Positions 11,287 through 50,783 of a stretch of 64,000 nucleotides of DNA are shown piece after piece. Every line of letters starts with the position of its first letter. The first letter of the stretch is position 1. The DNA is from Escherichia phage muut, in sequence record NC_052657.1; one strand, given 5' to 3'. The notes beneath the pieces are model-generated. The model had not been told where the DNA came from. It saw only the letters and a program-made list of their open reading frames with translations, and ran no database searches. The position numbers and the translations under genes were made by a program.

Positions 11287-11553
11287 TTAAGCATACTGGG
11301 TCATTTCACCAGCTTCGCGTTTCTCCAGAAGAACTGCAATCAAAGCAATAGCTGCTTCTTCTTCGTGAGGAAGCCCCATTTCATCCAGAAGAGCAAGGAA
11401 GTCAATTACCAAACTTTCTGTTTTAAGGCTAACGCTACCATTTTCGTTTTCAGTAAGAACTGATTCAGGATCAAAAATAAAGATTGCTCCACCTTTATTA
11501 TCAATCAATACGTGCTTCTCAATCAATTCTTTGCCATAAGTCTTTTCTGTCAT
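11287..11553 (-). CDS. hypothetical protein (88 aa)
   Basis: ORF with AGGAG RBS; first gene downstream of minus-strand promoter. Confidence 0.5.
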   Translation of the reverse strand: MTEKTYGKELIEKHVLIDNKGGAIFIFDPESVLTENENGSVSLKTESLVIDFLALLDEMGLPHEEEAAIALIAVLLEKREAGEMTQYA

Positions 11554-11582
11554 AGTTTTCTCCTTTTGTTTAACTTGTGCTT

Positions 11583-11612
11583 ATCTTAGCAAATAACTAG
11601 CTATGTTGTCAA
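11583..11612 (-). promoter_or_regulatory. sigma70-like promoter (TTGACA-18-TAAGAT) reading toward tRNA array
   Basis: Perfect -35 TTGACA and -10 TAAGAT on minus strand about 30 nt upstream of the RBS of gene 11287-11553. Confidence 0.5.
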
Positions 11613-11718
11613 CTAGTTTTTACAATATTTTTTCTTGATCTGTAACCCAGTGTATAACCGCATACAAAAGATACAATAGCAATAAAAACAGATAAGCCAA
11701 AAATAATTTCTGTAGACA
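11608..11718 (-). CDS. small hydrophobic peptide (36 aa)
   Basis: ORF below track cutoff; AAGGAAA RBS; predicted single TM helix. Confidence 0.3.
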
Positions 11719-11732
11719 TACTGTTTCCTTAA

Positions 11733-11954
11733 TTATGTGAAATCTAATTCCTCCTCTGGTGCTGTGTAATTTAGAAGAAGATCAGTTACACTTTGATGTT
11801 GATAAACCCTTTCGGGACTGTCGTCGAATGCCAAACTTGTACAAATCGAGCATAGATCCGACTCTTGAATATTACCATTCCTGTCTCTACGGGAGTGATT
11901 AGTCAAGTGTCTGTTACAGGCTCGGCAACGAAAATAAAAATTATGTTGTTTCAT
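11733..11954 (-). CDS. small Cys-rich protein (73 aa), possible zinc-binding
   Basis: CxxC ... CxxC spacing (CRACN ... CSIC); AAGGA RBS. Confidence 0.45.
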   Translation of the reverse strand: MKQHNFYFRCRACNRHLTNHSRRDRNGNIQESDLCSICTSLAFDDSPERVYQHQSVTDLLLNYTAPEEELDFT

Positions 11955-20264: not shown

Positions 20265-21366
20265 TCCTACATTGTATGGTAAAACTTCTACAGGTAAAAT
20301 TAAACAGTGGTCAGTCTATACCGAAGGTAGTGTTGTAACTGTTGCTCATGGTCAATTAGGTGGAAAGATTACTAGCAAATCTTATACAGCAGAACCTAAA
20401 AATATTGGTCGCTCAAATGAAACAACAGCAGAAGAACAAGCTGAAATAGAAGCTCTTGCCAAATGGACAAAACAACTTAAGAATGGGTATTATAAAACAA
20501 AAGAGGAAGCTGAAAACCATGTTCCTTCCACACCCATGAAATGTCAGGATTATAAAGATTATGCTGATCGTGTTTTGTTCCCAGGTTATGCACAATATAA
20601 ATTGAATGGTCTACGTTCAATGATTAACATGCAAGGTGAATGTTTATCTAAAGCTGGGGAAGTATATAAACTTCCACCTCACTGGAAAGAAATTCCAACC
20701 TTCATTAAAGAAGTAGTTGGTCATCCTCTTGATGGTGAAGTTTTTGCTGGTCTGGGTGTCCTTAGCCTTCAACAAATTAATAGTGCGTGGAAAAAGCACA
20801 ATGCTAACACACCGCTTCTTAAATATTATGTATACGATGTTCCTGTGGCATCTGTACCATTTGAGAAGAGGGTTCAAGTTTTGGCTGCTCTAAAAGAAGT
20901 TGTTGAAGATAAAGGTTTAGATGAACTTATTTGTGTAGTACATACAGAGTACATTGAAAACCAAGAACAGTTTGATGCTTTCTATGCAAAAGCTCTACAT
21001 GAGAAAGCGGAAGGTGTGGTGTATCGTAACGCACAAGGTGTTTACGAATTCGATAAACGTTCTTATGATGTTATTAAACGTAAACCACGTCAGACGCTTG
21101 AAGTTAAAGTGGTAAGTGCAAAGCGTGATAAAAATGGTGACGGGGTATTGACAGGCGAGATGGAAAATGGTAAAGTAGTCGAATTCCTGATGCGTAAGGA
21201 TTCAGATGAAACCATTAACTATCGTAAAGCAGAAAATGCCGAAATGTTAATTGGTAAATTTGTTGAGATTGAGTATGAAGAGTTTTCCGATGGTGGAATA
21301 CCTACGAAACCAACAGGTGTCCGTTTACGGGAAATGGTGGAGGGAACATGGGAGCCAAGAGAGTAG
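20251..21366 (+). CDS. ATP-dependent polynucleotide (DNA) ligase
   Basis: Start reset to ATG 20251 (GGAGG RBS); motifs KLNG, LDGEV, EGVVYRN, VIKRK and OB-like C-terminus. Confidence 0.5.
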   Translation: MKQTNPTLYGKTSTGKIKQWSVYTEGSVVTVAHGQLGGKITSKSYTAEPKNIGRSNETTAEEQAEIEALAKWTKQLKNGYYKTKEEAENHVPSTPMKCQDYKDYADRVLFPGYAQYKLNGLRSMINMQGECLSKAGEVYKLPPHWKEIPTFIKEVVGHPLDGEVFAGLGVLSLQQINSAWKKHNANTPLLKYYVYDVPVASVPFEKRVQVLAALKEVVEDKGLDELICVVHTEYIENQEQFDAFYAKALHEKAEGVVYRNAQGVYEFDKRSYDVIKRKPRQTLEVKVVSAKRDKNGDGVLTGEMENGKVVEFLMRKDSDETINYRKAENAEMLIGKFVEIEYEEFSDGGIPTKPTGVRLREMVEGTWEPRE

Positions 21367-21977
21367 ACTTTGTAGGTAAGAAATGCGGTTGTTATACTGT
21401 CTTAGAAGAGATTGAAAGGGACAAACATGGCAAAAGACGTTTTACTTGTTCTTGTGATTGTGGTAATATTTGCACGGTAACTATGGAAACACTTAGGAAG
21501 AATAGAAGTTCTTATTGTTCCAAGTGTAGACCGAAAACAACACAAACAGGAGCATACAAATCGTGGGAAGCTATGTTAGGGAGATGCTATAACAAAAACA
21601 ATACTCACTTTGAATACTACGGTGGTCGTGGTATTAAGGTTTGTGATGCTTGGAGAAATTCATTCTCTGCATTCTTTGAGGATATGGGAGATAGACCTAA
21701 AGGCTTATCTCTTGACAGAATAGACTCGGAAAAAGATTACAGTAAAGAAAATTGTCGCTGGGCTACAAGGTCTGTCCAGTCATACAATACACGAAAACAG
21801 AAAAATAACACTTCTGGTAAAACAGGTGTTGTGTGGAGCGAGAAAGAAAAAAGATGGATTGCTCGTATATCCTATCAAGGAAAAGATATCCGTCTTGGAG
21901 CATTTATTGATATTGAAGATGCTATATCAGCAAGACAGGAAGCTGAAGTATTGTATTTTGGCAAGATTAAAACATAA
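21348..21977 (+). CDS. HNH-family homing endonuclease-like protein
   Basis: Cys cluster (KCGCY...CSCDCG) and segment YGGRGIKVCDAW...SLDRID...NCRWAT seen in phage HNH annotations; overlaps ligase end. Confidence 0.45.
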   Translation: MGAKRVDFVGKKCGCYTVLEEIERDKHGKRRFTCSCDCGNICTVTMETLRKNRSSYCSKCRPKTTQTGAYKSWEAMLGRCYNKNNTHFEYYGGRGIKVCDAWRNSFSAFFEDMGDRPKGLSLDRIDSEKDYSKENCRWATRSVQSYNTRKQKNNTSGKTGVVWSEKEKRWIARISYQGKDIRLGAFIDIEDAISARQEAEVLYFGKIKT

Positions 21978-21988
21978 AGGAGGTTGCA

Positions 21989-22180
21989 ATGAGCATTGAA
22001 GTTATTTTGATTCTTGTGTTGCTTTCTATTGTTGCTTGTGGTATAATTGTCGCATCAACTTTCCCTCACCCAACATGGTGGCAGAAGGCTAGTCTGATGA
22101 TTGTCTACGGTGCAGCAGGTGTACAAATGGGTGCAGTTGTTGTATATCTGGTGGAATTTACAAAACAATATTTTAAATAA
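21989..22180 (+). CDS. small membrane protein (63 aa)
   Basis: Two predicted TM helices. Confidence 0.4.
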   Translation: MSIEVILILVLLSIVACGIIVASTFPHPTWWQKASLMIVYGAAGVQMGAVVVYLVEFTKQYFK

Positions 22181-27723: not shown

Positions 27724-28287
27724 ATGGCTAAACTTTATTTCCGATATAGTCCAATGAACAGTGGTAAAAGCACACATCTTCTACAAACAGCTTGGAACTA
27801 TAAAGAAAGAAATATGAAAGTTCTTCTTTTAACTTCAGCTTTAGATACCAGATCTGGTTGTGCTATTGCTTCTAGGATAGGTATTAAAGAGGAAGCAAAA
27901 CCAGTTAAAACAAAAGAAGATATGCTGGAAATTTATACACAACTTAAAGAAAATCCAGTAGATGCAGTATTTGTGGACGAATCACAATTCCTAACTAAAG
28001 ATATGGTTGACATTCTTGGAGATGTGGTAGATAATTACGATATTCCTGTATTCTGTTATGGACTTAAAACAGATTTTGCTACAGAATTGTTTGAAGGTTC
28101 TGAACGGTTATTAGCCATAGCAGATTCAATTACAGAATTGAAAAGCATTTGTAAATGTGGAAGAAAAGCTATTTTCAATGCTAGACTTATCGACTCTAAA
28201 GAACAGATTGTTATTGGGGGAGAAGACATTTACGAAACAATGTGTAGAAAATGTTATAACAGGAGAAATAATGCGTCTAGTATGTGA
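27724..28287 (+). CDS. tdk: thymidine kinase
   Basis: Near-collinear with E. coli Tdk: P-loop MNSGKST, DESQFL, C-terminal zinc motif CKCGRKA...CRKCY. Confidence 0.9.
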   Translation: MAKLYFRYSPMNSGKSTHLLQTAWNYKERNMKVLLLTSALDTRSGCAIASRIGIKEEAKPVKTKEDMLEIYTQLKENPVDAVFVDESQFLTKDMVDILGDVVDNYDIPVFCYGLKTDFATELFEGSERLLAIADSITELKSICKCGRKAIFNARLIDSKEQIVIGGEDIYETMCRKCYNRRNNASSM

Positions 28288-30622: not shown

Positions 30623-32884
30623 GTGACTCAGTATCTAAGCAAATCTATCCGTTATGTAACAAAAACAAACGGCAAGAAAGAAGAATTTAATCCAGAAAAA
30701 CTTCGTAAATGGTCAGAGTTTGCTGCTGGTAAATTAAATTGGTCTGAAATTGAACTCGAAGCTGTTAAACGTTGTTACGACGGTGTGCCTACTCGTGATT
30801 TACATAAAGCTATGATAGCAGCATGTATTGATAAGAAAGATCAGGCATATAGTGATATGGCAGGTCGGTTACTTCTTGGTATGATTTATAAACAGGCTCA
30901 TGGGGGATATCACAATATCCCCTCCCTCCTGGATTTCTACAATATGTCTGTAAGTAAAGGCTATTGGGGAAAAATGGATTATACAGAAGAAGAAATTATT
31001 GAGATTGGTAAAATTGTCAATCACGATAAAAACCTAACTTATGGTTATTCCGTACTGCGCCAGATGGTTGATAAGTATCTTGTGAAAGATGCGATCAATG
31101 ATGTTGTTTTTGAATCACCACAGTTTTTATTCATTGGTGTAGCAATGAAGGTAATGGAAATTCAACCAAAAGATCGCAGAGTAGAAGACATTAAACGTCT
31201 ATATACCTACGTAAGTGATCTTAAGATTAATTTACCATCACCTTATTTAACAACGTTGCGTACTAAGATTAAAGGTAGTGCTTCTTGTTGTCTGTTTAGA
31301 GCAGATGATACAGCAGAATCTTTAGCAATTGCTAACTATCTTGCTCATGAATATACATTGAATAATGCAGGTATTGGTGTTAACCTCCAAACCCGTGCTA
31401 CAGGACAAGGTGTTAAGAACAACCGTATCGTTCACGGTGGTCTTTTACCATATCTGAAATGGATGGAAACAAGTGTTGGAGCATCAAAACAAGCAAGCCG
31501 TGGTGGAAGTGCAACAGTAACGTTTACAATATTAGAACCTGATTTTGAAGATCTGGTACGTTTGAAAAACCCAACTACTGTTAGTGAAAAACGAGTAGAT
31601 AAACTTGATTACTCTATTGTAGTAAACAATGCTTTCCTGCGCCGTGCAGCAAAAGGTAAAGATTGGATGCTAGTCAGTTATGACGAAGCACCAGAACTCT
31701 ATGATGCGCTTTATAAAAGCGAGGAAGAGTTTGAAGAAGTATATGAAAAAGTTAGTCGCAAACGAATTAAGAAAAAGTTTGTAAAAGCACGAGATCTTCT
31801 GGCAGAAATTATTACACAAAGAGCAGAGACAGGACGTATTTATATGTTCTTTGCGGATAATGCTAATAAGCATACTCCGTTTAAGGATGTTATTTATCAG
31901 TCAAACTTGTGCCAAGAAATTTTCTTACCTACGAAAGCATTTCACAGTATGACTGATCTTTTCACAGGTGAGAATACAGAAGATCAAGAATTGGCATTAT
32001 GCTTCCTGTCTTCTATTGTAGCTGGTCGTGTTACACCAGAAGAATATGAAGATGTTGCATATTATACCGTTCTAACTATTGATAATGTTATTGAAACAAT
32101 GCAGTATCCGTTTAAACATAACGAAATCACTGCTAAAGCACGTAGGTCTATCGGTGTAGGTATTACAAACCTGGCACATTATCTGGCAAGTAATTTTGTT
32201 ACTTATTCAGATCCTTACGGCAAAAAACTAATTCACGAATTAGCAGAAAGACATTATTACTGGTTAGCAAGAGCTTCTCTTCGTTTGGCAAAAGAGAAAG
32301 GTAATGCAGAATGGATGCATAAAACCAAATGGCCTGAAGGATGGTTGCCTATTGATACCTACGCTAAAGCTGTAGACGATATTGGCAATTTTAAACTTAA
32401 AATGGATTGGGAAGGTTTACGACAAGATATCATTGCACAAGGTGGTATCCGAAATAGCGTATTAGCAGCTATTGCTCCAAATGAGTCCAGTAGTCTTGTA
32501 AGTAATACGACTAACTCTGTGTATCCTGTACGTGATACTATAGTTTATAAACAAAGCCAAAAGGGTAATGTTCTGTTTATTGTGCCAGACTACGATAAAC
32601 TAAAAGATATTTACCAATCGGCTTGGGATACACCAGATAAAGATATGGCTGAAGCATATGGACTGTTGACTAAATTCTTAGATCAAGGTGCATCATGTGA
32701 TAAGTGGATTGACTATTCTAAGATGGAAGGTGGTCGTTTATCCATTAAATCAGAAATGCAATATATTCTTCAGTTTGCAAAACTTGGTGGTAAATCTTTG
32801 TACTATCTAAATAGCAGAACAAAATCGGCAACCTCACTCGCTCAAGAGGATGAAGAATCCGGTTGTGAGGCTTGTAAGATGTAA
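30623..32884 (+). CDS. nrdA: ribonucleotide reductase class Ia large subunit
   Basis: 753 aa; N-terminal ATP-cone-like region; active-site NLCQEI; GTG start with AGGAGAGG RBS. Confidence 0.85.
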   Translation: MTQYLSKSIRYVTKTNGKKEEFNPEKLRKWSEFAAGKLNWSEIELEAVKRCYDGVPTRDLHKAMIAACIDKKDQAYSDMAGRLLLGMIYKQAHGGYHNIPSLLDFYNMSVSKGYWGKMDYTEEEIIEIGKIVNHDKNLTYGYSVLRQMVDKYLVKDAINDVVFESPQFLFIGVAMKVMEIQPKDRRVEDIKRLYTYVSDLKINLPSPYLTTLRTKIKGSASCCLFRADDTAESLAIANYLAHEYTLNNAGIGVNLQTRATGQGVKNNRIVHGGLLPYLKWMETSVGASKQASRGGSATVTFTILEPDFEDLVRLKNPTTVSEKRVDKLDYSIVVNNAFLRRAAKGKDWMLVSYDEAPELYDALYKSEEEFEEVYEKVSRKRIKKKFVKARDLLAEIITQRAETGRIYMFFADNANKHTPFKDVIYQSNLCQEIFLPTKAFHSMTDLFTGENTEDQELALCFLSSIVAGRVTPEEYEDVAYYTVLTIDNVIETMQYPFKHNEITAKARRSIGVGITNLAHYLASNFVTYSDPYGKKLIHELAERHYYWLARASLRLAKEKGNAEWMHKTKWPEGWLPIDTYAKAVDDIGNFKLKMDWEGLRQDIIAQGGIRNSVLAAIAPNESSSLVSNTTNSVYPVRDTIVYKQSQKGNVLFIVPDYDKLKDIYQSAWDTPDKDMAEAYGLLTKFLDQGASCDKWIDYSKMEGGRLSIKSEMQYILQFAKLGGKSLYYLNSRTKSATSLAQEDEESGCEACKM

Positions 32885-32891
32885 TGAAACT

Positions 32892-32912
32892 AGGGGGCTT
32901 TGTCCCCCTTTC
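32892..32912 (+). terminator. putative terminator/attenuator hairpin between nrdA and next gene
   Basis: AGGGGG-ctttgt-CCCCCT followed by TTTCTT. Confidence 0.4.
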
Positions 32913-32924
32913 TTAAGGAGGAAT

Positions 32925-33260
32925 ATGCCTACATTAGTTGTATTACCTGGGGCAACACCACAAAGACGCTGGGGAAATTATACACTGGTAGATAGTAAAG
33001 ATTTTACATTCGATTGGTGTTGTCATTATATTGCAGGTTTTCAATTTTCCAGTGTTGAAATATGGGCTTCCAATGATCCCATAGCTACCTGGTATGCTTT
33101 AACCAGAGCAAGGTATGAGGGAGAGGTTACTATACTACTCACAAAGAGTGTATGGGACGCATTAGAGAAGGCTTACCTAGAGGATGGTATGGAGAGAGAA
33201 CACATTGATACAATAAAAGCAATGTGTGATATTGTGGAGGATTTAAATGGCAGCAATTAA
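32925..33260 (+). CDS. hypothetical protein (111 aa)
   Basis: Start reset to ATG 32925 (AAGGAGG RBS) so that terminator hairpin is not translated. Confidence 0.4.
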   Translation: MPTLVVLPGATPQRRWGNYTLVDSKDFTFDWCCHYIAGFQFSSVEIWASNDPIATWYALTRARYEGEVTILLTKSVWDALEKAYLEDGMEREHIDTIKAMCDIVEDLNGSN

Positions 33261-36395: not shown

Positions 36396-37265
36396 ATGAA
36401 AGGTATTATCTTAGCAGGTGGTAGTGGAACAAGACTTTACCCAGTTACTAAAGGGGTTAGTAAACAACTATTACCAATTTACGATAAACCTATGATTTAT
36501 TATCCACTCTCTGTCCTAATGCTTTCTGGAATTAGGGAAATACTAATAATTACGACACCAGAAGATCAAATTAATTTTGTAAATCTTCTAGGTGATGGTT
36601 CTTCTTTTGGTATTTCCCTACAGTATGCAATACAGGACAACCCAAAAGGTTTAGCAGAAGCGTTTATTATTGGTGAGAGCTTTATTGGTGAAGATTCTGT
36701 AGCACTTGTTCTAGGTGATAATTTGTTCTTTGGTCAGAGTTTTGGTAGCATTTTAGATTCTGCTAAAGAACATATTGAAAAGAATGGTGGAGCTAATATT
36801 TTTGGGTATCACGTAAATGATCCTGAAAGATTTGGTGTTGTTGAGTTTGATTCTGAAGGTACAGTGGTAAGTATTGAAGAAAAACCAAAAGCACCAAAAA
36901 GCAATTATGCAATTACAGGCTTGTACTTTTACGATAATTCTGTTATACAGAAAGCTAAAAGCGTTAAACCTTCTGCTAGAGGGGAATTAGAGATCACAGA
37001 TATAAATGAGATGTACTGGAAAGAAAAGACTTTACGTGTCTGTAAACTAGGAAGAGGTTTCACTTGGCTGGATACAGGAACACATGAAAGTCTTATGGAA
37101 GCATCTCAATTTGTTCATGCAATAGAAAAGCAACAAGGTATGAAGGTTGCATGCCTGGAAGAGATTGCTTTTAAAAATGAATGGATTACTTTAGACTCTG
37201 TAAAAAGTTCTGGAGAGGTTTTAAGTAAAACAGACTACGGTAAGTATTTACTTAAATTAAAATAA
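36396..37265 (+). CDS. rmlA: glucose-1-phosphate thymidylyltransferase
   Basis: [17 protein letters not shown]...[17 protein letters not shown] nearly identical to RmlA N-terminus. Confidence 0.9.
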
Positions 37266-42973: not shown

Positions 42974-43002
42974 TTGACTTTAACATTGAGGTAGTGCATA
43001 CT
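42974..43002 (+). promoter_or_regulatory. sigma70-like promoter (TTGACT-17-CATACT) followed by hairpin
   Basis: Hairpin TCCTGT-aacaga-ACAGGA at 43003-43020, then GGAGGG RBS and ATG 43028. Confidence 0.5.
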
Positions 43003-43027
43003 TCCTGTAACAGAACAGGAGGGTATT

Positions 43028-43690
43028 ATGAAGTTTGTACTGTATCATCGACTTTCTAAGAAGAAACAACAAGGCAACCAGTATGGTATAGAATCACAGG
43101 AAGCAGATATCCAACGCTTCCTGGATTCACAAGAAAATTATACTATTGTAGGTAGCTTTGCAGAGTTTTATTCTGGTAAAGGCGATTGGAAGCAACGTAG
43201 AGAGCTTGTAAAAGCTGTTAATCTTTGCAAAGAAACAGGTGCTACACTTGTTGTTGCTAAGGTTGACCGTCTTGGACGTAACACAGCTTCTGTTGCAACC
43301 TTGTTAGAGATGATTAATGTACGGATAGCCACTATGCCCTCCGCTGAAAATATGATAATAAATATTTTAGCAGTTCTGGCAGAAGAAGAGGCTCGTGCAA
43401 TATCTGATCGTGTTAAGAAGAGCCTTAAGGTAGCAAAAGCGAAGGGAACGCTTCTTGGTGCAGCAAACCCTAAATACAAAAGAACAGATTATACGAAAAC
43501 GGAAGAAGCAAAACGCTCAAAAGAGTTTGCACTTTCTTTAAAAGATTCTTTAGTTGCATACAGAGCTTGTAAAACGCCATATATGACGATTGCAAAGCAT
43601 CTGAATGAATCAGGAAAGAGAACTATTCGTGGGAGTTTGTTCGATGCCAAAGCGGTACAACGTCTTTGTGCAAAATTGAATATTAAATAA
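43028..43690 (+). CDS. serine recombinase (resolvase/invertase family)
   Basis: N-terminal YHRLSKKKQ (catalytic Ser), VVAKVDRLGRN, C-terminal HTH-like region. Confidence 0.7.
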   Translation: MKFVLYHRLSKKKQQGNQYGIESQEADIQRFLDSQENYTIVGSFAEFYSGKGDWKQRRELVKAVNLCKETGATLVVAKVDRLGRNTASVATLLEMINVRIATMPSAENMIINILAVLAEEEARAISDRVKKSLKVAKAKGTLLGAANPKYKRTDYTKTEEAKRSKEFALSLKDSLVAYRACKTPYMTIAKHLNESGKRTIRGSLFDAKAVQRLCAKLNIK

Positions 43691-45567: not shown

Positions 45568-45887
45568 TGTATAAAGTCACAATTAAAGAGACGGTAGGGA
45601 ATATTACGAAAGAAACTACTATTGAAACGGAAGACGTTGAGTTAGTCAAAGAGCTTTTATTTCCAAAATCAGAAATAAAAGATAATGACGAACAGTTGGA
45701 TGAAGATAACGATACAGCAAGGGATAAATGGAAGAAACAACTAGCGGAGATTTGGAAAAAGCCTCAAGTAACGCCTCCATTTGATCCTCGTACACCTTAT
45801 AGTCCTTGGGAAATTGGAAGCCCTTGGTTTACGTACCCTATTACTCCAATTGTTACTCCCAGTATTATTCCCAATATTACTTGTTAA
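45567..45887 (+). CDS. hypothetical protein (106 aa)
   Basis: Track ORF. Confidence 0.4.
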   Translation: MYKVTIKETVGNITKETTIETEDVELVKELLFPKSEIKDNDEQLDEDNDTARDKWKKQLAEIWKKPQVTPPFDPRTPYSPWEIGSPWFTYPITPIVTPSIIPNITC

Positions 45888-45897
45888 GGAGAAAACC

Positions 45898-46476
45898 ATG
45901 AGCGATTTATTCTACACAGGTGTTGGTAGTAGAGATATTACAGACGAAGAATGGGACACTATGGTAGCTGTTGCAAAATGGTTATCTACATGGTTCATTT
46001 TGCGATCTGGTAAAGCAGAAGGTGCAGATTCCGCATTTGAATGCGGGGTATATGATAGTGGAAACAATACAAAGAAAGAAATATACATTCCTTGGCCTTC
46101 GTTTAAAGGTAATGAGATAGATGGAGAGGTTATTGTTCTTGACAGACCAGATAGTGTAAACTATGCTCTAACCTTGCAATATGCAAAAGAATTGCATCCA
46201 GCTTGGGACAGATTATCTCAAGGTGCTAAAAAATTACATCAAAGAAATATCCACCAAGTTCTTGGAAGAGATCTTGAGAATCCAAAACCATCTTGTTTTC
46301 TTTTAGCTTGTGCAAATACAGATAAAAATGGAGATCCTTTAGGTGGTACAAGAACAGCTTGGATGTTGGCTAAAAAGTTTAATGTTCCTTGTTTTAATAT
46401 TCGAGGTAAAAGTAAAAAACAAATTTTCGAATTTATTAAGCCTATTTTAGAGGAGAATGGTCTTGTCCAGAAATAA
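45898..46476 (+). CDS. hypothetical protein, possible DprA/SLOG-like Rossmann domain
   Basis: Start reset to ATG 45898 (AAGGAG RBS); TGVGSRDI...SGKAEGADSAFECG loosely resembles DprA nucleotide-binding motif. Confidence 0.3.
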   Translation: MSDLFYTGVGSRDITDEEWDTMVAVAKWLSTWFILRSGKAEGADSAFECGVYDSGNNTKKEIYIPWPSFKGNEIDGEVIVLDRPDSVNYALTLQYAKELHPAWDRLSQGAKKLHQRNIHQVLGRDLENPKPSCFLLACANTDKNGDPLGGTRTAWMLAKKFNVPCFNIRGKSKKQIFEFIKPILEENGLVQK

Positions 46477-47320: not shown

Positions 47321-47731
47321 ATGTACTATAGTGACTATTTTGTAAACCCAACAAAAGAACAACTTCAATCAGCAGCGGATAAGATGCAGATTGTAGTTAA
47401 AGAATGTGAGAAAATAAGAAAACAACTACAAGAAGAGATTGTTGTTGTTAATAAATGGTTTGGTCTTAAGAAGAAAATTGTTAGTAAACACAATATCATC
47501 CTTGAAAAAGCAAAAACGACAGGAACTAGTTACGCCTTACAAGCCTTGTTACTAAATTACATTGATATAGAACAACATTCTCTTCTGCACTGTTGGCTTA
47601 ACAGCCCTAGTATTGAGAATCTCTTGTTCTGGTTATCGTGTGAATCTGTACTTTTAAATGAGAATGAGGCTTACCGTTTAAACTTCTGCCTCAAGGCAGA
47701 ATTACCAGCTAGTGTTAAGGAGAAGAAGTAA
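47321..47731 (+). CDS. hypothetical protein (136 aa)
   Basis: Track ORF. Confidence 0.45.
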   Translation: MYYSDYFVNPTKEQLQSAADKMQIVVKECEKIRKQLQEEIVVVNKWFGLKKKIVSKHNIILEKAKTTGTSYALQALLLNYIDIEQHSLLHCWLNSPSIENLLFWLSCESVLLNENEAYRLNFCLKAELPASVKEKK

Positions 47732-48848: not shown

Positions 48849-49458
48849 GACTCAAAAAGTTGCATATCAAGTAGATCGTGAAGACGGTGAAGGTAGTGTT
48901 GTAGTTTTTGATACACATGGTCTTGCAGCAAGACGCAAAGGTGCTTGTCTACTGGACATTGGTGGTGAAGATGAATACTGCACTGTACGTAGAGTAAAAG
49001 AATTTGATCAATATGCTGAAAAAGGTTTTGTACCTGCAAAAGCACTATTAGAAGCTGGATGGTGGATACCTAGTGCACATGATTATGATATTTTGGAATC
49101 AGATACAGACGATTTTAACAGTGAAGATTTTGTTTTTTCTCTGGATGAAAAATGCGTTTGGAAAGATTGGGATGAAATGGAACGCCATGCTTATTTTATA
49201 AACGAAGCATTAGATCGTAAAACTTGGTTTGAGAATACAGTTAAAGCAGCGTATCCTCAATTTACTTTTACAGAATTTTGGGGTGGCCCACACCATATTA
49301 CTCATGTGGCATACTTCGAGTTCCCAGGCTCACGCTATAAAGGTACTGTCTATTGGGATTGGGACGAGGACAAAGAACCTTCTGCTCAAGACTTCCGTTG
49401 CTATGTTTGTCAAGGTGATCAAGAAGCCCTTGACAAGTACCTTAAAAGTCTGGTATAA
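48847..49458 (+). CDS. hypothetical protein (203 aa)
   Basis: Track ORF. Confidence 0.45.
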   Translation: MTQKVAYQVDREDGEGSVVVFDTHGLAARRKGACLLDIGGEDEYCTVRRVKEFDQYAEKGFVPAKALLEAGWWIPSAHDYDILESDTDDFNSEDFVFSLDEKCVWKDWDEMERHAYFINEALDRKTWFENTVKAAYPQFTFTEFWGGPHHITHVAYFEFPGSRYKGTVYWDWDEDKEPSAQDFRCYVCQGDQEALDKYLKSLV

Positions 49459-49459
49459 T
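49430..49459 (+). promoter_or_regulatory. consensus sigma70 promoter (TTGACA-18-TATAAT) overlapping stop of upstream gene
   Basis: Perfect hexamers; followed by hairpin 49477-49495, GGAGGA RBS and ATG 49513. Confidence 0.55.
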
Positions 49460-49476
49460 CCGTAAAACTTAACCAA

Positions 49477-49499
49477 AGCCCCAAGCAGGGGCTTTATTT
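49477..49499 (+). terminator. hairpin with T-run (terminator and/or 5-prime-UTR stem-loop)
   Basis: AAGCCCC-aagca-GGGGCTT followed by TATTTG. Confidence 0.45.
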
Positions 49500-49512: not shown

Positions 49513-50046
49513 ATGGGTTTTGATGACATGTTATTATATGAGGAGGCTTGTGTGAAAGAAGCTATGGCTTTACCAGTTTTATCTATTGATATTACAACAG
49601 TAGACACTTTTTCAGATTGTGAAACGTGTGGATCGTATTCGTCTATTGTACATGAAGTTAGTGGGGATTTAGGCACTTACGAAGATGGAGATTATGCAAG
49701 TTGTTTAGGTGATAATCGAGATGGTGAAGTGGCGAATGTTGCAAACTGGATTGCTTCTAAGTTAAAAGAAAGAAATCGTCCGTTCCCTAATCTTCTTACA
49801 CCAGAAGCTATGCTTAAAGCTGAACAAGAGATGTATGATTATGGTTATAAAGTAGATTATGACTATAATGATCCTAAATATAAAAAATTGAGTGACAAGT
49901 ATTGGGAACTAGCTAATGCTTATGATAAATACTACTCTACAGAAAACATTGTTAAATTGTTTTTAGATTTTGGAGTAGAAATTAATTGGGATTTCGAAGA
50001 GGAAGAGCGTTACGACGCATCTTCTTGGGAGGACGAGGGTGAATGA
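49513..50046 (+). CDS. hypothetical acidic protein
   Basis: Start reset to ATG 49513 (GGAGGA RBS). Confidence 0.4.
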   Translation: MGFDDMLLYEEACVKEAMALPVLSIDITTVDTFSDCETCGSYSSIVHEVSGDLGTYEDGDYASCLGDNRDGEVANVANWIASKLKERNRPFPNLLTPEAMLKAEQEMYDYGYKVDYDYNDPKYKKLSDKYWELANAYDKYYSTENIVKLFLDFGVEINWDFEEEERYDASSWEDEGE

Positions 50047-50783
50047 TAGAACGAAAACCCTTACCAGATAGAGATTACTTGTTATCAAGGTTTAGTGTGG
50101 AGAATGGTCGTCTTGTTTGGAAACCTAAACCTTCTACAACAAAAGAGAACAAAAGGTGGAATAGCAGATACGCAGGGAAGATTGCAGGGACTATTGATAA
50201 AGCTGGTTACTCTCATGTCAAAATAGATGGTATTGTATACTTGGAGCACAGAGTTTGTTTTAAAATGTATCATAATTACTGTCCAGATGTTATAGACCAT
50301 GATGACGGCAATAAACTTAATAATGCGGAAAGTAATTTATTGGATAGTAACTATTTATTAAATAATAACAATAGACACGTGGATGGGTTAGAAGGTATTT
50401 ATGAAAAGGATGGTGTTTTTCTTTGGGTTATAAACTACAACCAAGAAACTTTCTCTGTTTCAGGTTTCAAAACTAAAGAGGAAGCTATTGTAGCTAGAGC
50501 TTTAGCAAAACAAGAAATTTTGAAAGGATCTTATATCAAAAAAGAAAAGAAGCGTATAGATAACACTTCAGGATTAAGCTGTGTGTTTGTGGCAACAAGA
50601 GAGAGAACATTCTTTTTCAAGTTTGTGTTTGACAAGATCACGTATTGCAAATATGGTTTCAACGATCCAGAGAGATGTGCTATAGCTCTGGAGAAACTAA
50701 GATTGAAGGTGATGAAAGAAAAATATAAACCTGCAAATAAAAGCATTTGCGAAAAATATAAGGAGGAGATTTATGCCGCGTAG
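50043..50783 (+). CDS. HNH homing endonuclease with AP2-like DNA-binding domain
   Basis: HNH motif VIDHDDGNKLNNAESNL; downstream SGFKTKEEAIVARALA AP2-like segment. Confidence 0.65.
   Translation: MIERKPLPDRDYLLSRFSVENGRLVWKPKPSTTKENKRWNSRYAGKIAGTIDKAGYSHVKIDGIVYLEHRVCFKMYHNYCPDVIDHDDGNKLNNAESNLLDSNYLLNNNNRHVDGLEGIYEKDGVFLWVINYNQETFSVSGFKTKEEAIVARALAKQEILKGSYIKKEKKRIDNTSGLSCVFVATRERTFFFKFVFDKITYCKYGFNDPERCAIALEKLRLKVMKEKYKPANKSICEKYKEEIYAA

Follow-up and report, generated by a model that had tools for sequence, protein, structure and literature searches.

The serine recombinase gp053 of phi92-like phages and its predicted DNA-binding domain of the large-serine-recombinase type

Introduction

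A gene for a site-specific recombinase in a phage genome that looks lytic raises the question of what the enzyme recombines. The gene studied here lies in a stretch of 64,000 nucleotides from Escherichia phage muut (NC_052657.1), which was analysed as a whole and is referred to below as the window. An initial inspection of the letters without database searches (the sequence-only reading) had described a serine recombinase of the resolvase/invertase type behind a strong promoter with a hairpin. It had seen no integrase or repressor nearby, and had proposed that the enzyme runs an invertible-segment switch or resolves replication multimers.

The window is collinear, as its reverse complement, with positions 1142-63068 of phage phi92 (97.7-99.1% identity, few indels). 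Phi92 is a virulent myovirus of the genus Justusliebigvirus, subfamily Stephanstirmvirinae, and phi92-like phages are called strictly lytic in published descriptions (PMC12210895), in agreement with the lytic appearance of the window. The gene is already known at the annotation level, since existing records label its phi92 counterpart, gp053, as a recombinase or invertase; the labels among the records are 'putative recombinase, resolvase family protein / DNA invertase', 'DNA invertase' and 'hypothetical protein'. The finding is in this sense ordinary in kind and repeats existing annotation. New in this analysis are the C-terminal domain of the large serine recombinase (LSR) type, the purifying selection, and the differing loci at which the gene occurs with its own promoters. 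No functional experiment on gp053 was found in the searchable literature. The sole statement on its role that was found there is a speculative one, 'probably for keeping concatemers as single molecules' (PMC10282059); other papers overlook the gene or list these phages as free of lysogeny genes.

Results

Identity of the Recombinase

The protein encoded by the open reading frame (Table 1) begins with MKFVLYHRLSKKKQ and contains the motif VDRLGRN. It matches the Resolvase N-terminal domain of Pfam (PF00239) over residues 4-141 (E 8.4e-22, 78.3 bits, cut-off 23.3) and PHROG 125 ('DNA invertase', E 1.3e-31). The best sequence matches among solved structures in the PDB are the resolvases Sin/Bin3 (1.2e-5), Tn3 (2.3e-5) and gamma-delta (7e-5), the match to Gin being weaker (E about 1e-3). 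Against the NCBIfam equivalogs (CcrB, Mpi, YneB, XisF) the best scores were 35.8, 33.5 and 29.8 bits, with cut-offs of 900, 272 and 175. The phi92 protein (Phi92_gp053, YP_009012384.1) shows 99-100% amino acid identity across 54 phage records.

Conservation was scored in two alignments, with 25 and 53 homologues, that reach down to about 30% identity. Q24, E46, G50, D80, R81, R84, E121 and R128 are invariant in both, and Y6, R8, the nucleophile S10 and R57 are conserved in at least 90% of the sequences. The residue set assigned to the catalytic domain consists of Y6, R8, S10, Q24, E46, S49-G50, R57, D80-R81, R84, E121 and R128. With these catalytic residues and an E-helix, gp053 belongs to the serine recombinase superfamily (PF00239), and its sequence predicts a catalytically competent enzyme. 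The YxRxS N-terminus and the VDRLGRN motif, from which the recombinase had been recognized in the sequence-only reading, are thereby confirmed by the open reading frame, the Pfam, PHROG and PDB matches and the residue conservation.

Table 1. Features of the recombinase locus (positions in the window).
Feature	Position	Strand	Basis or remark
Sigma-70-like promoter, TTGACT-17 bp-CATACT	42974..43002	+	9/12 match, inferred activity
Stem-loop of 8 bp, presumed mRNA start	43001..43022 (43001-43008 pairs with 43015-43022)	+	Folding
Serine recombinase CDS (Phi92_gp053)	43028..43690, stop codon included	+	220 aa, ATG start
Catalytic domain and long E-helix, residues 1-140	43028..43447	+	Pfam PF00239, residue conservation, AlphaFold2, Foldseek
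C-terminal four-helix DNA-binding domain, residues 161-220	43508..43687	+	AlphaFold2, Foldseek, PF07508 in relatives

The C-Terminal Domain

An AlphaFold2 model of gp053, built with 53 input sequences (pLDDT 88.8), shows the alpha/beta catalytic domain of resolvases, an E-helix at residues 108-138, a poorly ordered linker and C-terminal helices at residues 162-170, 172-180, 185-194 and 207-216. When the model was compared with the PDB using Foldseek, Bxb1 integrase ranked first (9iu2_A, 248 aligned columns), matching along the entire protein, followed by the catalytic domains of Sin and gamma-delta. PF07508 ('Recombinase', the DNA-binding domain of large serine recombinases) was matched in 20 of the 53 family members, and HTH_7, the helix-turn-helix of invertases and resolvases, in none of them (0/53). 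The C-terminal domain carries the motif IAxxLNxxGxxTxxG. Model and sequence together predict that it is a short or truncated form of the LSR 'Recombinase' domain, not an invertase helix-turn-helix. Because of the Foldseek match to Bxb1, the distribution of PF07508 and HTH_7 and the lack of an NCBIfam equivalog, gp053 is best described as a small serine recombinase with a truncated LSR-type DNA-binding domain, for which 'DNA invertase' is a generic label. Divergence is faster in the C-terminal than in the catalytic domain (35 and 65% identity, respectively, between gp053 and its Phapecoctavirus homologue), the pattern that would be expected if DNA specificity co-evolves with the site.

Conservation and Relocation of the Gene

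The recombinase genes of the window and phi92 differ at nine nucleotides, all of them third positions and all synonymous (9 synonymous, 0 non-synonymous). The gene was found in all 54 matched Justusliebigvirus records and is near-universal in more than 130 related genomes. Homologues show 78% identity in Klebsiella phages (KP13-26), 57% in Phapecoctavirus and 35-49% in Vibrio and Shewanella phages of 130-140 kb. By these sequence comparisons gp053 is a lineage-wide gene of the Stephanstirmvirinae under purifying selection.

Phi92, KP13-26 and Klebsiella phage 05F01 have the recombinase in one common slot, which in phi92 lies between gp054 and gp052. In Phapecoctavirus DIJ07P1 this slot is 'empty', with only a terminator hairpin there (11541-11900 of a DIJ07P1 segment). 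Its recombinase gene lies on the opposite strand at a distance of about 15 kb, in an early gene cluster (45689-46351 of a DIJ07P1 segment), behind a promoter TTGACA-17-TAAAGT. As the slot is empty and the copy lies elsewhere on the other strand, the recombinase cassette must have moved during the evolution of the subfamily. In the 05F01 protein (1408-2079 of its segment) the C-terminal domain shares about 70% identity with that of gp053, and the catalytic domain is a different one, of canonical length and starting IAYKRVSTDQQ; this is a domain swap which preserved the DNA-binding part. The copy in Phapecoctavirus phage Schickermooser (1394-2046 of its segment) is frameshifted by six small deletions (1-7 nt) within the first 250 nt and is almost identical to that of phage ESCO13 outside them. 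The deletions are either those of a recent pseudogene or a sequencing or assembly error.

Some further observations were made in the course of these comparisons. Two open reading frames of the window, at 21348-21977 (209 aa) and 50043-50783 (246 aa), are not at these places in phi92; from their translations we take them to resemble homing endonucleases of the HNH/AP2 type. Phi92 gp074, annotated as an HNH endonuclease, is missing from the window (32851-33230). These differences in HNH-type genes are insertion polymorphisms of selfish genes. Five records labeled as 'Campylobacter phage' with Campylobacter jejuni as host (MG065639, MG065645, MG065656, MG065689 and MG065650) are 98-99% identical to phi92-like or phAPEC8-like Escherichia coli phages, and their host labels are probably wrong or due to contamination.

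Promoter and Hairpin Upstream of the Recombinase Gene

The pattern of the promoter upstream of the gene occurs exactly only once in the 64-kb window. At the same place Klebsiella phage KP13-26 has TTGACA-17-CATACT, so that both hexamers and the 17-bp spacing are kept and the spacer sequence is different. Promoters of the TTGACA type are also found directly upstream of the recombinase copies of Phapecoctavirus phages ESCO13 and DIJ07P1 and of Vibrio phage VPMCC14, which brings the lineages with an own recombinase promoter to four. Because hexamers and spacing are kept in KP13-26 and promoters of their own precede these other copies, the promoter is probably real. The sequence-only reading was right about its presence, and not about its strength: it matches the consensus at 9 of 12 positions, lacks an extended -10 element and is surpassed by six better matches within the same 12 kb, so the word strong is unjustified. 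The 47 promoter-like sites in these 12 kb are no excess over shuffled sequences (39.6 +/- 6.5). A perfect consensus sigma-70 promoter (TTGACA-18-TATAAT with TG), much stronger by sequence than that of the recombinase, is present at 49430-49459 of the window, adjoining a bidirectional terminator hairpin (49475-49495).

The hairpin that had been noted beside the promoter is also present. It folds with -11.5 kcal/mol (z = -3.55 in a 35-nt context, with 1 of 200 shuffles folding equally well; z = -1.1 in a 51-nt context), and its 3' arm holds the Shine-Dalgarno sequence AGGAGG (43017-43022), which is paired with CUUCC. An analogue is weak in KP13-26 and absent in ESCO13 and VPMCC14. From its sequence the stem-loop is probably a genus-specific damper of gp053 translation. 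Its sequence TTCCTGTAA resembles what we take to be a gix half-site. As a crossover site of the gix type it was rejected: the window has this 20-mer only once, the left arm is changed without compensation in KP13-26, and scans for gix and hix sites remained at the level of chance.

Search for a Recombination Site

No res site adjoins the recombinase gene: the gaps to the neighboring genes are 57 bp upstream and 9 bp downstream, without repeated half-sites, and the ESCO13 gene has a gap of about 10 bp. Gaps of 57 and 9 bp are too short for a res site of the Tn3 type, which is therefore excluded next to the gp053 gene. Among dyad-symmetric elements recurring in phi92, DIJ07P1 and KP13-26, only terminators and one 21-bp palindrome resembling a Fur box, AAATGA(T/G)AAT-C-ATT(C/A)TCATTT, were found. 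Phi92 has 11 sites of this palindrome where about 0.5 are expected, clustered in large non-coding regions and inside its 343-bp direct terminal repeat; the 64-kb window has none. Sites lie at 72-93 and 267-294 of the phi92 terminal repeat, at 36991-37105, 47407-47427 and 47465-47485 of another phi92 segment, at 27770, 27828, 35201, 35957 and 36136 of the DIJ07P1 segment, and at 2717, 2757 and 16541 of the KP13-26 segment. The 7-1-7 unit of the E. coli Fur box is TGATAAT-N-ATTATCA, which the palindrome matches at 14 of 15 positions. Its centre is odd, and it stays constant in lineages where the DNA-binding domains of the recombinases are only 35% identical. For these three reasons we rejected it as a site for gp053, and we ascribe it to Fur or a different conserved factor. 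At the ends of the genome it may mediate control by iron or Fur, or it may titrate Fur; the literature search gave no paper that connects phi92 with a Fur box.

Two other candidates were rejected as well. The motif TGTAACA was seen upstream of a Synechococcus plasmid recombinase, in the loop of the phage hairpin described above and in a non-coding array of plasmid pMaD11 about 2.3 kb from the recombinase gene, and does not cluster in the phage genomes. In the phi92 terminal repeat, positions 234-265 form an imperfect palindrome, but KP13-26 does not keep its centre. These scans found no cognate gp053 site. Separately, a 27-bp block, GAAAATCGCGTTAAGCACCTCTCGCAA (phi92 331-357), is perfectly conserved in KP13-26 (aligned segment 17440-17940). 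It lies across position 343, where the phi92 terminal repeat has its right boundary, and is a candidate recognition or cutting site of the terminase.

Search for an Invertible Segment

Inverted repeats were searched in the window and in the complete phi92 genome, and only terminator palindromes and chance pairs were obtained. A scan with gix- and hix-like 26-mers as queries gave sites no more frequent than in shuffled sequences. A 25-kb query centred on the recombinase found one collinear place in every one of the 54 Justusliebigvirus records, save for matches cut by record ends. In 80 related loci from IMG/VR, the inverted repeats of at least 20 nt within 6 kb of the gene were two GC-rich sequences of the hairpin type (21-22 nt), neither of them crossover-like.

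Comparison of the whole genomes of phi92 and DIJ07P1 revealed a single inversion of about 1.25 kb (phi92 131,073-132,339), some 110 kb from the recombinase; further coordinates are 2268-3300 in VEcB (MT932211) and 20765-22015 in DIJ07P1, each in the segments compared. This segment, inverted in Phapecoctavirus, also occurs in both orientations within Justusliebigvirus, about 30 records having the phi92 orientation and the others the opposite one. It contains gp214-216, a divergent promoter region and an open reading frame that is presumably DUF2829-like. In the phi92 orientation this frame is fused to the downstream one (gp217, 183 aa), and in the opposite orientation it encodes a 59-aa protein. 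No inverted repeats were found at the junctions, the breakpoints fall on gene starts, and the two orientations diverge by 11-27% in the inverted DNA against 2-5% in the flanks. Given this divergence, the inversion is an old rearrangement kept as two alleles and not a switch, and it was rejected as a target of gp053.

Relatives on Plasmids and Beside Terminase Genes

The closest full-length relatives of gp053 outside phages (about 35% identity) are 'recombinase family proteins' encoded on small plasmids of 5.8-7.3 kb. On plasmid pMaD11 (5.8 kb) the recombinase is accompanied by RepA, a ParA-like protein and three small hypothetical proteins, and the 11 annotated genes of pP18_i (7.3 kb) include those for Rep, ParA, a ribbon-helix-helix protein and the recombinase. 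By analogy, such a Rep/Par setting would be the classical place of a multimer-resolution recombinase. A gene resembling the terminase large subunit, from two unrelated terminase families, lies within 6 kb of the recombinase in 9 of 80 viral relatives. Examples of these terminase-adjoining relatives (about 35% identity) have their loci at 3755-7746, 5110-7628 and 4950-7501. In one viral relative the recombinase is flanked by a terS-like gene and a probable terL (by homology, not Pfam), that is, near the start of packaging. In phage P1, loxP and cre are close to pac, and Cre cyclises the terminally redundant DNA and resolves dimers. Placement beside terminase genes fits a Cre-like role by this analogy without proving it.

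Discussion

We conclude with high confidence that the gene encodes an intact, selected and probably early-expressed serine recombinase, which is the annotated gp053 of phi92 and belongs to a small, uncharacterised subfamily whose DNA-binding domain is LSR-like. What it does to which DNA can be answered far more tentatively. Our best guess, which we put forward as a possibility, is a resolvase-type, excisive reaction on phage DNA, either cyclisation or monomerisation, because the plasmid relatives stand in Rep/Par settings and phage relatives beside terminases. Host RNA polymerase would probably transcribe the gene from its own sigma-70 promoter, which makes gp053 likely to be an early gene, and the stem-loop pairing the ribosome binding site would probably damp its translation. 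Dimers of gp053 would bind one site on phage DNA and recombine two directly repeated copies of it. The terminally redundant incoming genome would thus be cyclised, or circular replication multimers would be reduced to monomers, and no segment would be flipped. Timing of expression, substrate and direction of the reaction are what we infer in this scheme. The resolution of replication multimers, which the sequence-only reading had offered as its second option, is plausible by analogy with the plasmids on which Rep, Par and recombinase genes occur together. A more specific version is distinctly unlikely: gp053 with its minimal LSR-type domain would be a Cre-like cyclisation or monomerisation enzyme of a strictly virulent phage, acting soon after injection on a simple site in or near the 343-bp direct terminal repeat. 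Against an excisive reaction stand the failure to find a cognate site and the 57-bp gap, too short for a Tn3-type res, as well as the fact that a phage packaging its DNA from concatemers would not obviously need to resolve multimers. In addition, classical small resolvases require a supercoiled substrate, and a linear genome that has just been injected is not supercoiled. The relocation of the gene between genera and the six deletions in the Schickermooser copy suggest that gp053 may be dispensable.

The main rival to an excisive reaction, although we consider it rather unlikely, is that promoter and recombinase form an autonomous accessory cassette that does not process phage DNA, being a hitch-hiker or a weapon directed at the host chromosome, plasmids, prophages or co-infecting phages. 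The different loci and strands in Justusliebigvirus and Phapecoctavirus, with a clean empty site (gp054-terminator-gp052), agree with such a cassette, as do the promoter at each copy, the frameshifts in Schickermooser, the swapped catalytic domain in 05F01 and the lack of a gp053 site found in phage DNA. Its near-universal occurrence and purifying selection speak against such a cassette, a recombinase cannot be mobile by itself when no ends of an element are defined, and a weapon would have no known host target. It is extremely unlikely that gp053 has been domesticated as a DNA-binding regulator that lost recombination: neither a site nor a recombination product was found, as such a regulator would predict, yet the catalytic residues including S10 are conserved (at least 90%) over 53 homologues down to 30% identity, which is unexpected for a mere DNA binder.

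That gp053 is a DNA invertase, which like Gin, Cin and Hin would flip a segment between inverted crossover sites and thereby switch gene expression or the tails of proteins, was the first option of the sequence-only reading and is suggested by the common superfamily, the RefSeq and PHROG labels and the 1.25-kb segment with its two orientations. The features of that segment described above, the lack of inverted repeats above chance and of gix- or hix-like sites in the genome, the collinearity of all 54 genomes around the gene, the absence of adjacent crossover-like repeats in the 80 relatives, and a C-terminal domain that is not HTH_7 make it highly improbable. We also regard it as very unlikely that gp053 serves a hidden non-lytic state, integrating the phage or resolving the multimers of a plasmid-like carrier form. 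The Rep/Par contexts of the plasmid relatives and the large repeat-rich non-coding regions near the phage genome ends could be taken in its favor. To our knowledge, all known serine integrases use zinc-ribbon and coiled-coil domains, and gp053 has neither. The phi92 annotation contains no repressor, partition or plasmid replication genes, and the closest homologues in a collection of 5.8 billion proteins are on contigs of roughly 130-157 kb. The published descriptions of these phages as strictly lytic (PMC12210895) likewise speak against such a state.

Compared with known systems, gp053 has the catalytic fold and residues of the small serine resolvases (TnpR of Tn3 and gamma-delta, Sin, plasmid multimer-resolution enzymes) and is similar in size. 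It differs from them in that its gene has neither an adjacent res site nor a transposase, in a segment between beta4 and alphaE that is about 10 residues shorter, and in a C-terminal domain that is not the resolvase helix-turn-helix. With the invertases Hin, Gin, Cin and Pin it shares the superfamily, whereas its gene lacks an adjacent invertible segment and its DNA-binding domain is another one. Behind the E-helix, its linker and first helices look like the beginning of the 'Recombinase' domain found in large serine recombinases (Bxb1, phiC31, TP901-1). A length of 400 amino acids or more characterises that class; gp053, with 220, is less than half the size of these enzymes, with a four-helix remnant of this domain and no zinc-ribbon or coiled-coil, and the phi92-like phage has no attP and is not temperate. 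The likeness to Cre-loxP of P1 is a functional analogy only: in P1 a phage-encoded recombinase has its site near the packaging start, and some relatives of gp053 lie beside terminases, but Cre is a tyrosine recombinase, P1 is temperate, and no lox-like site was found for gp053.

Work is under way to use phi92-like and phAPEC8-like phages in therapy and biocontrol, and genome screens flag the words 'recombinase' and 'invertase' as a lysogeny risk. Recognizing gp053 as a lineage-wide small serine recombinase that is not an integrase helps to interpret such flags correctly. The scientific question is a modest one, namely why a virulent subfamily keeps an intact, selected and relocating site-specific recombinase with its own promoter. 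If its target is indeed a simple site, the 220-aa gp053 could be a compact tool for genome engineering. Should the Cre-like cyclisation hold true, gp053 would be a very compact simple-site recombinase and would represent a new role of serine recombinases in lytic development.
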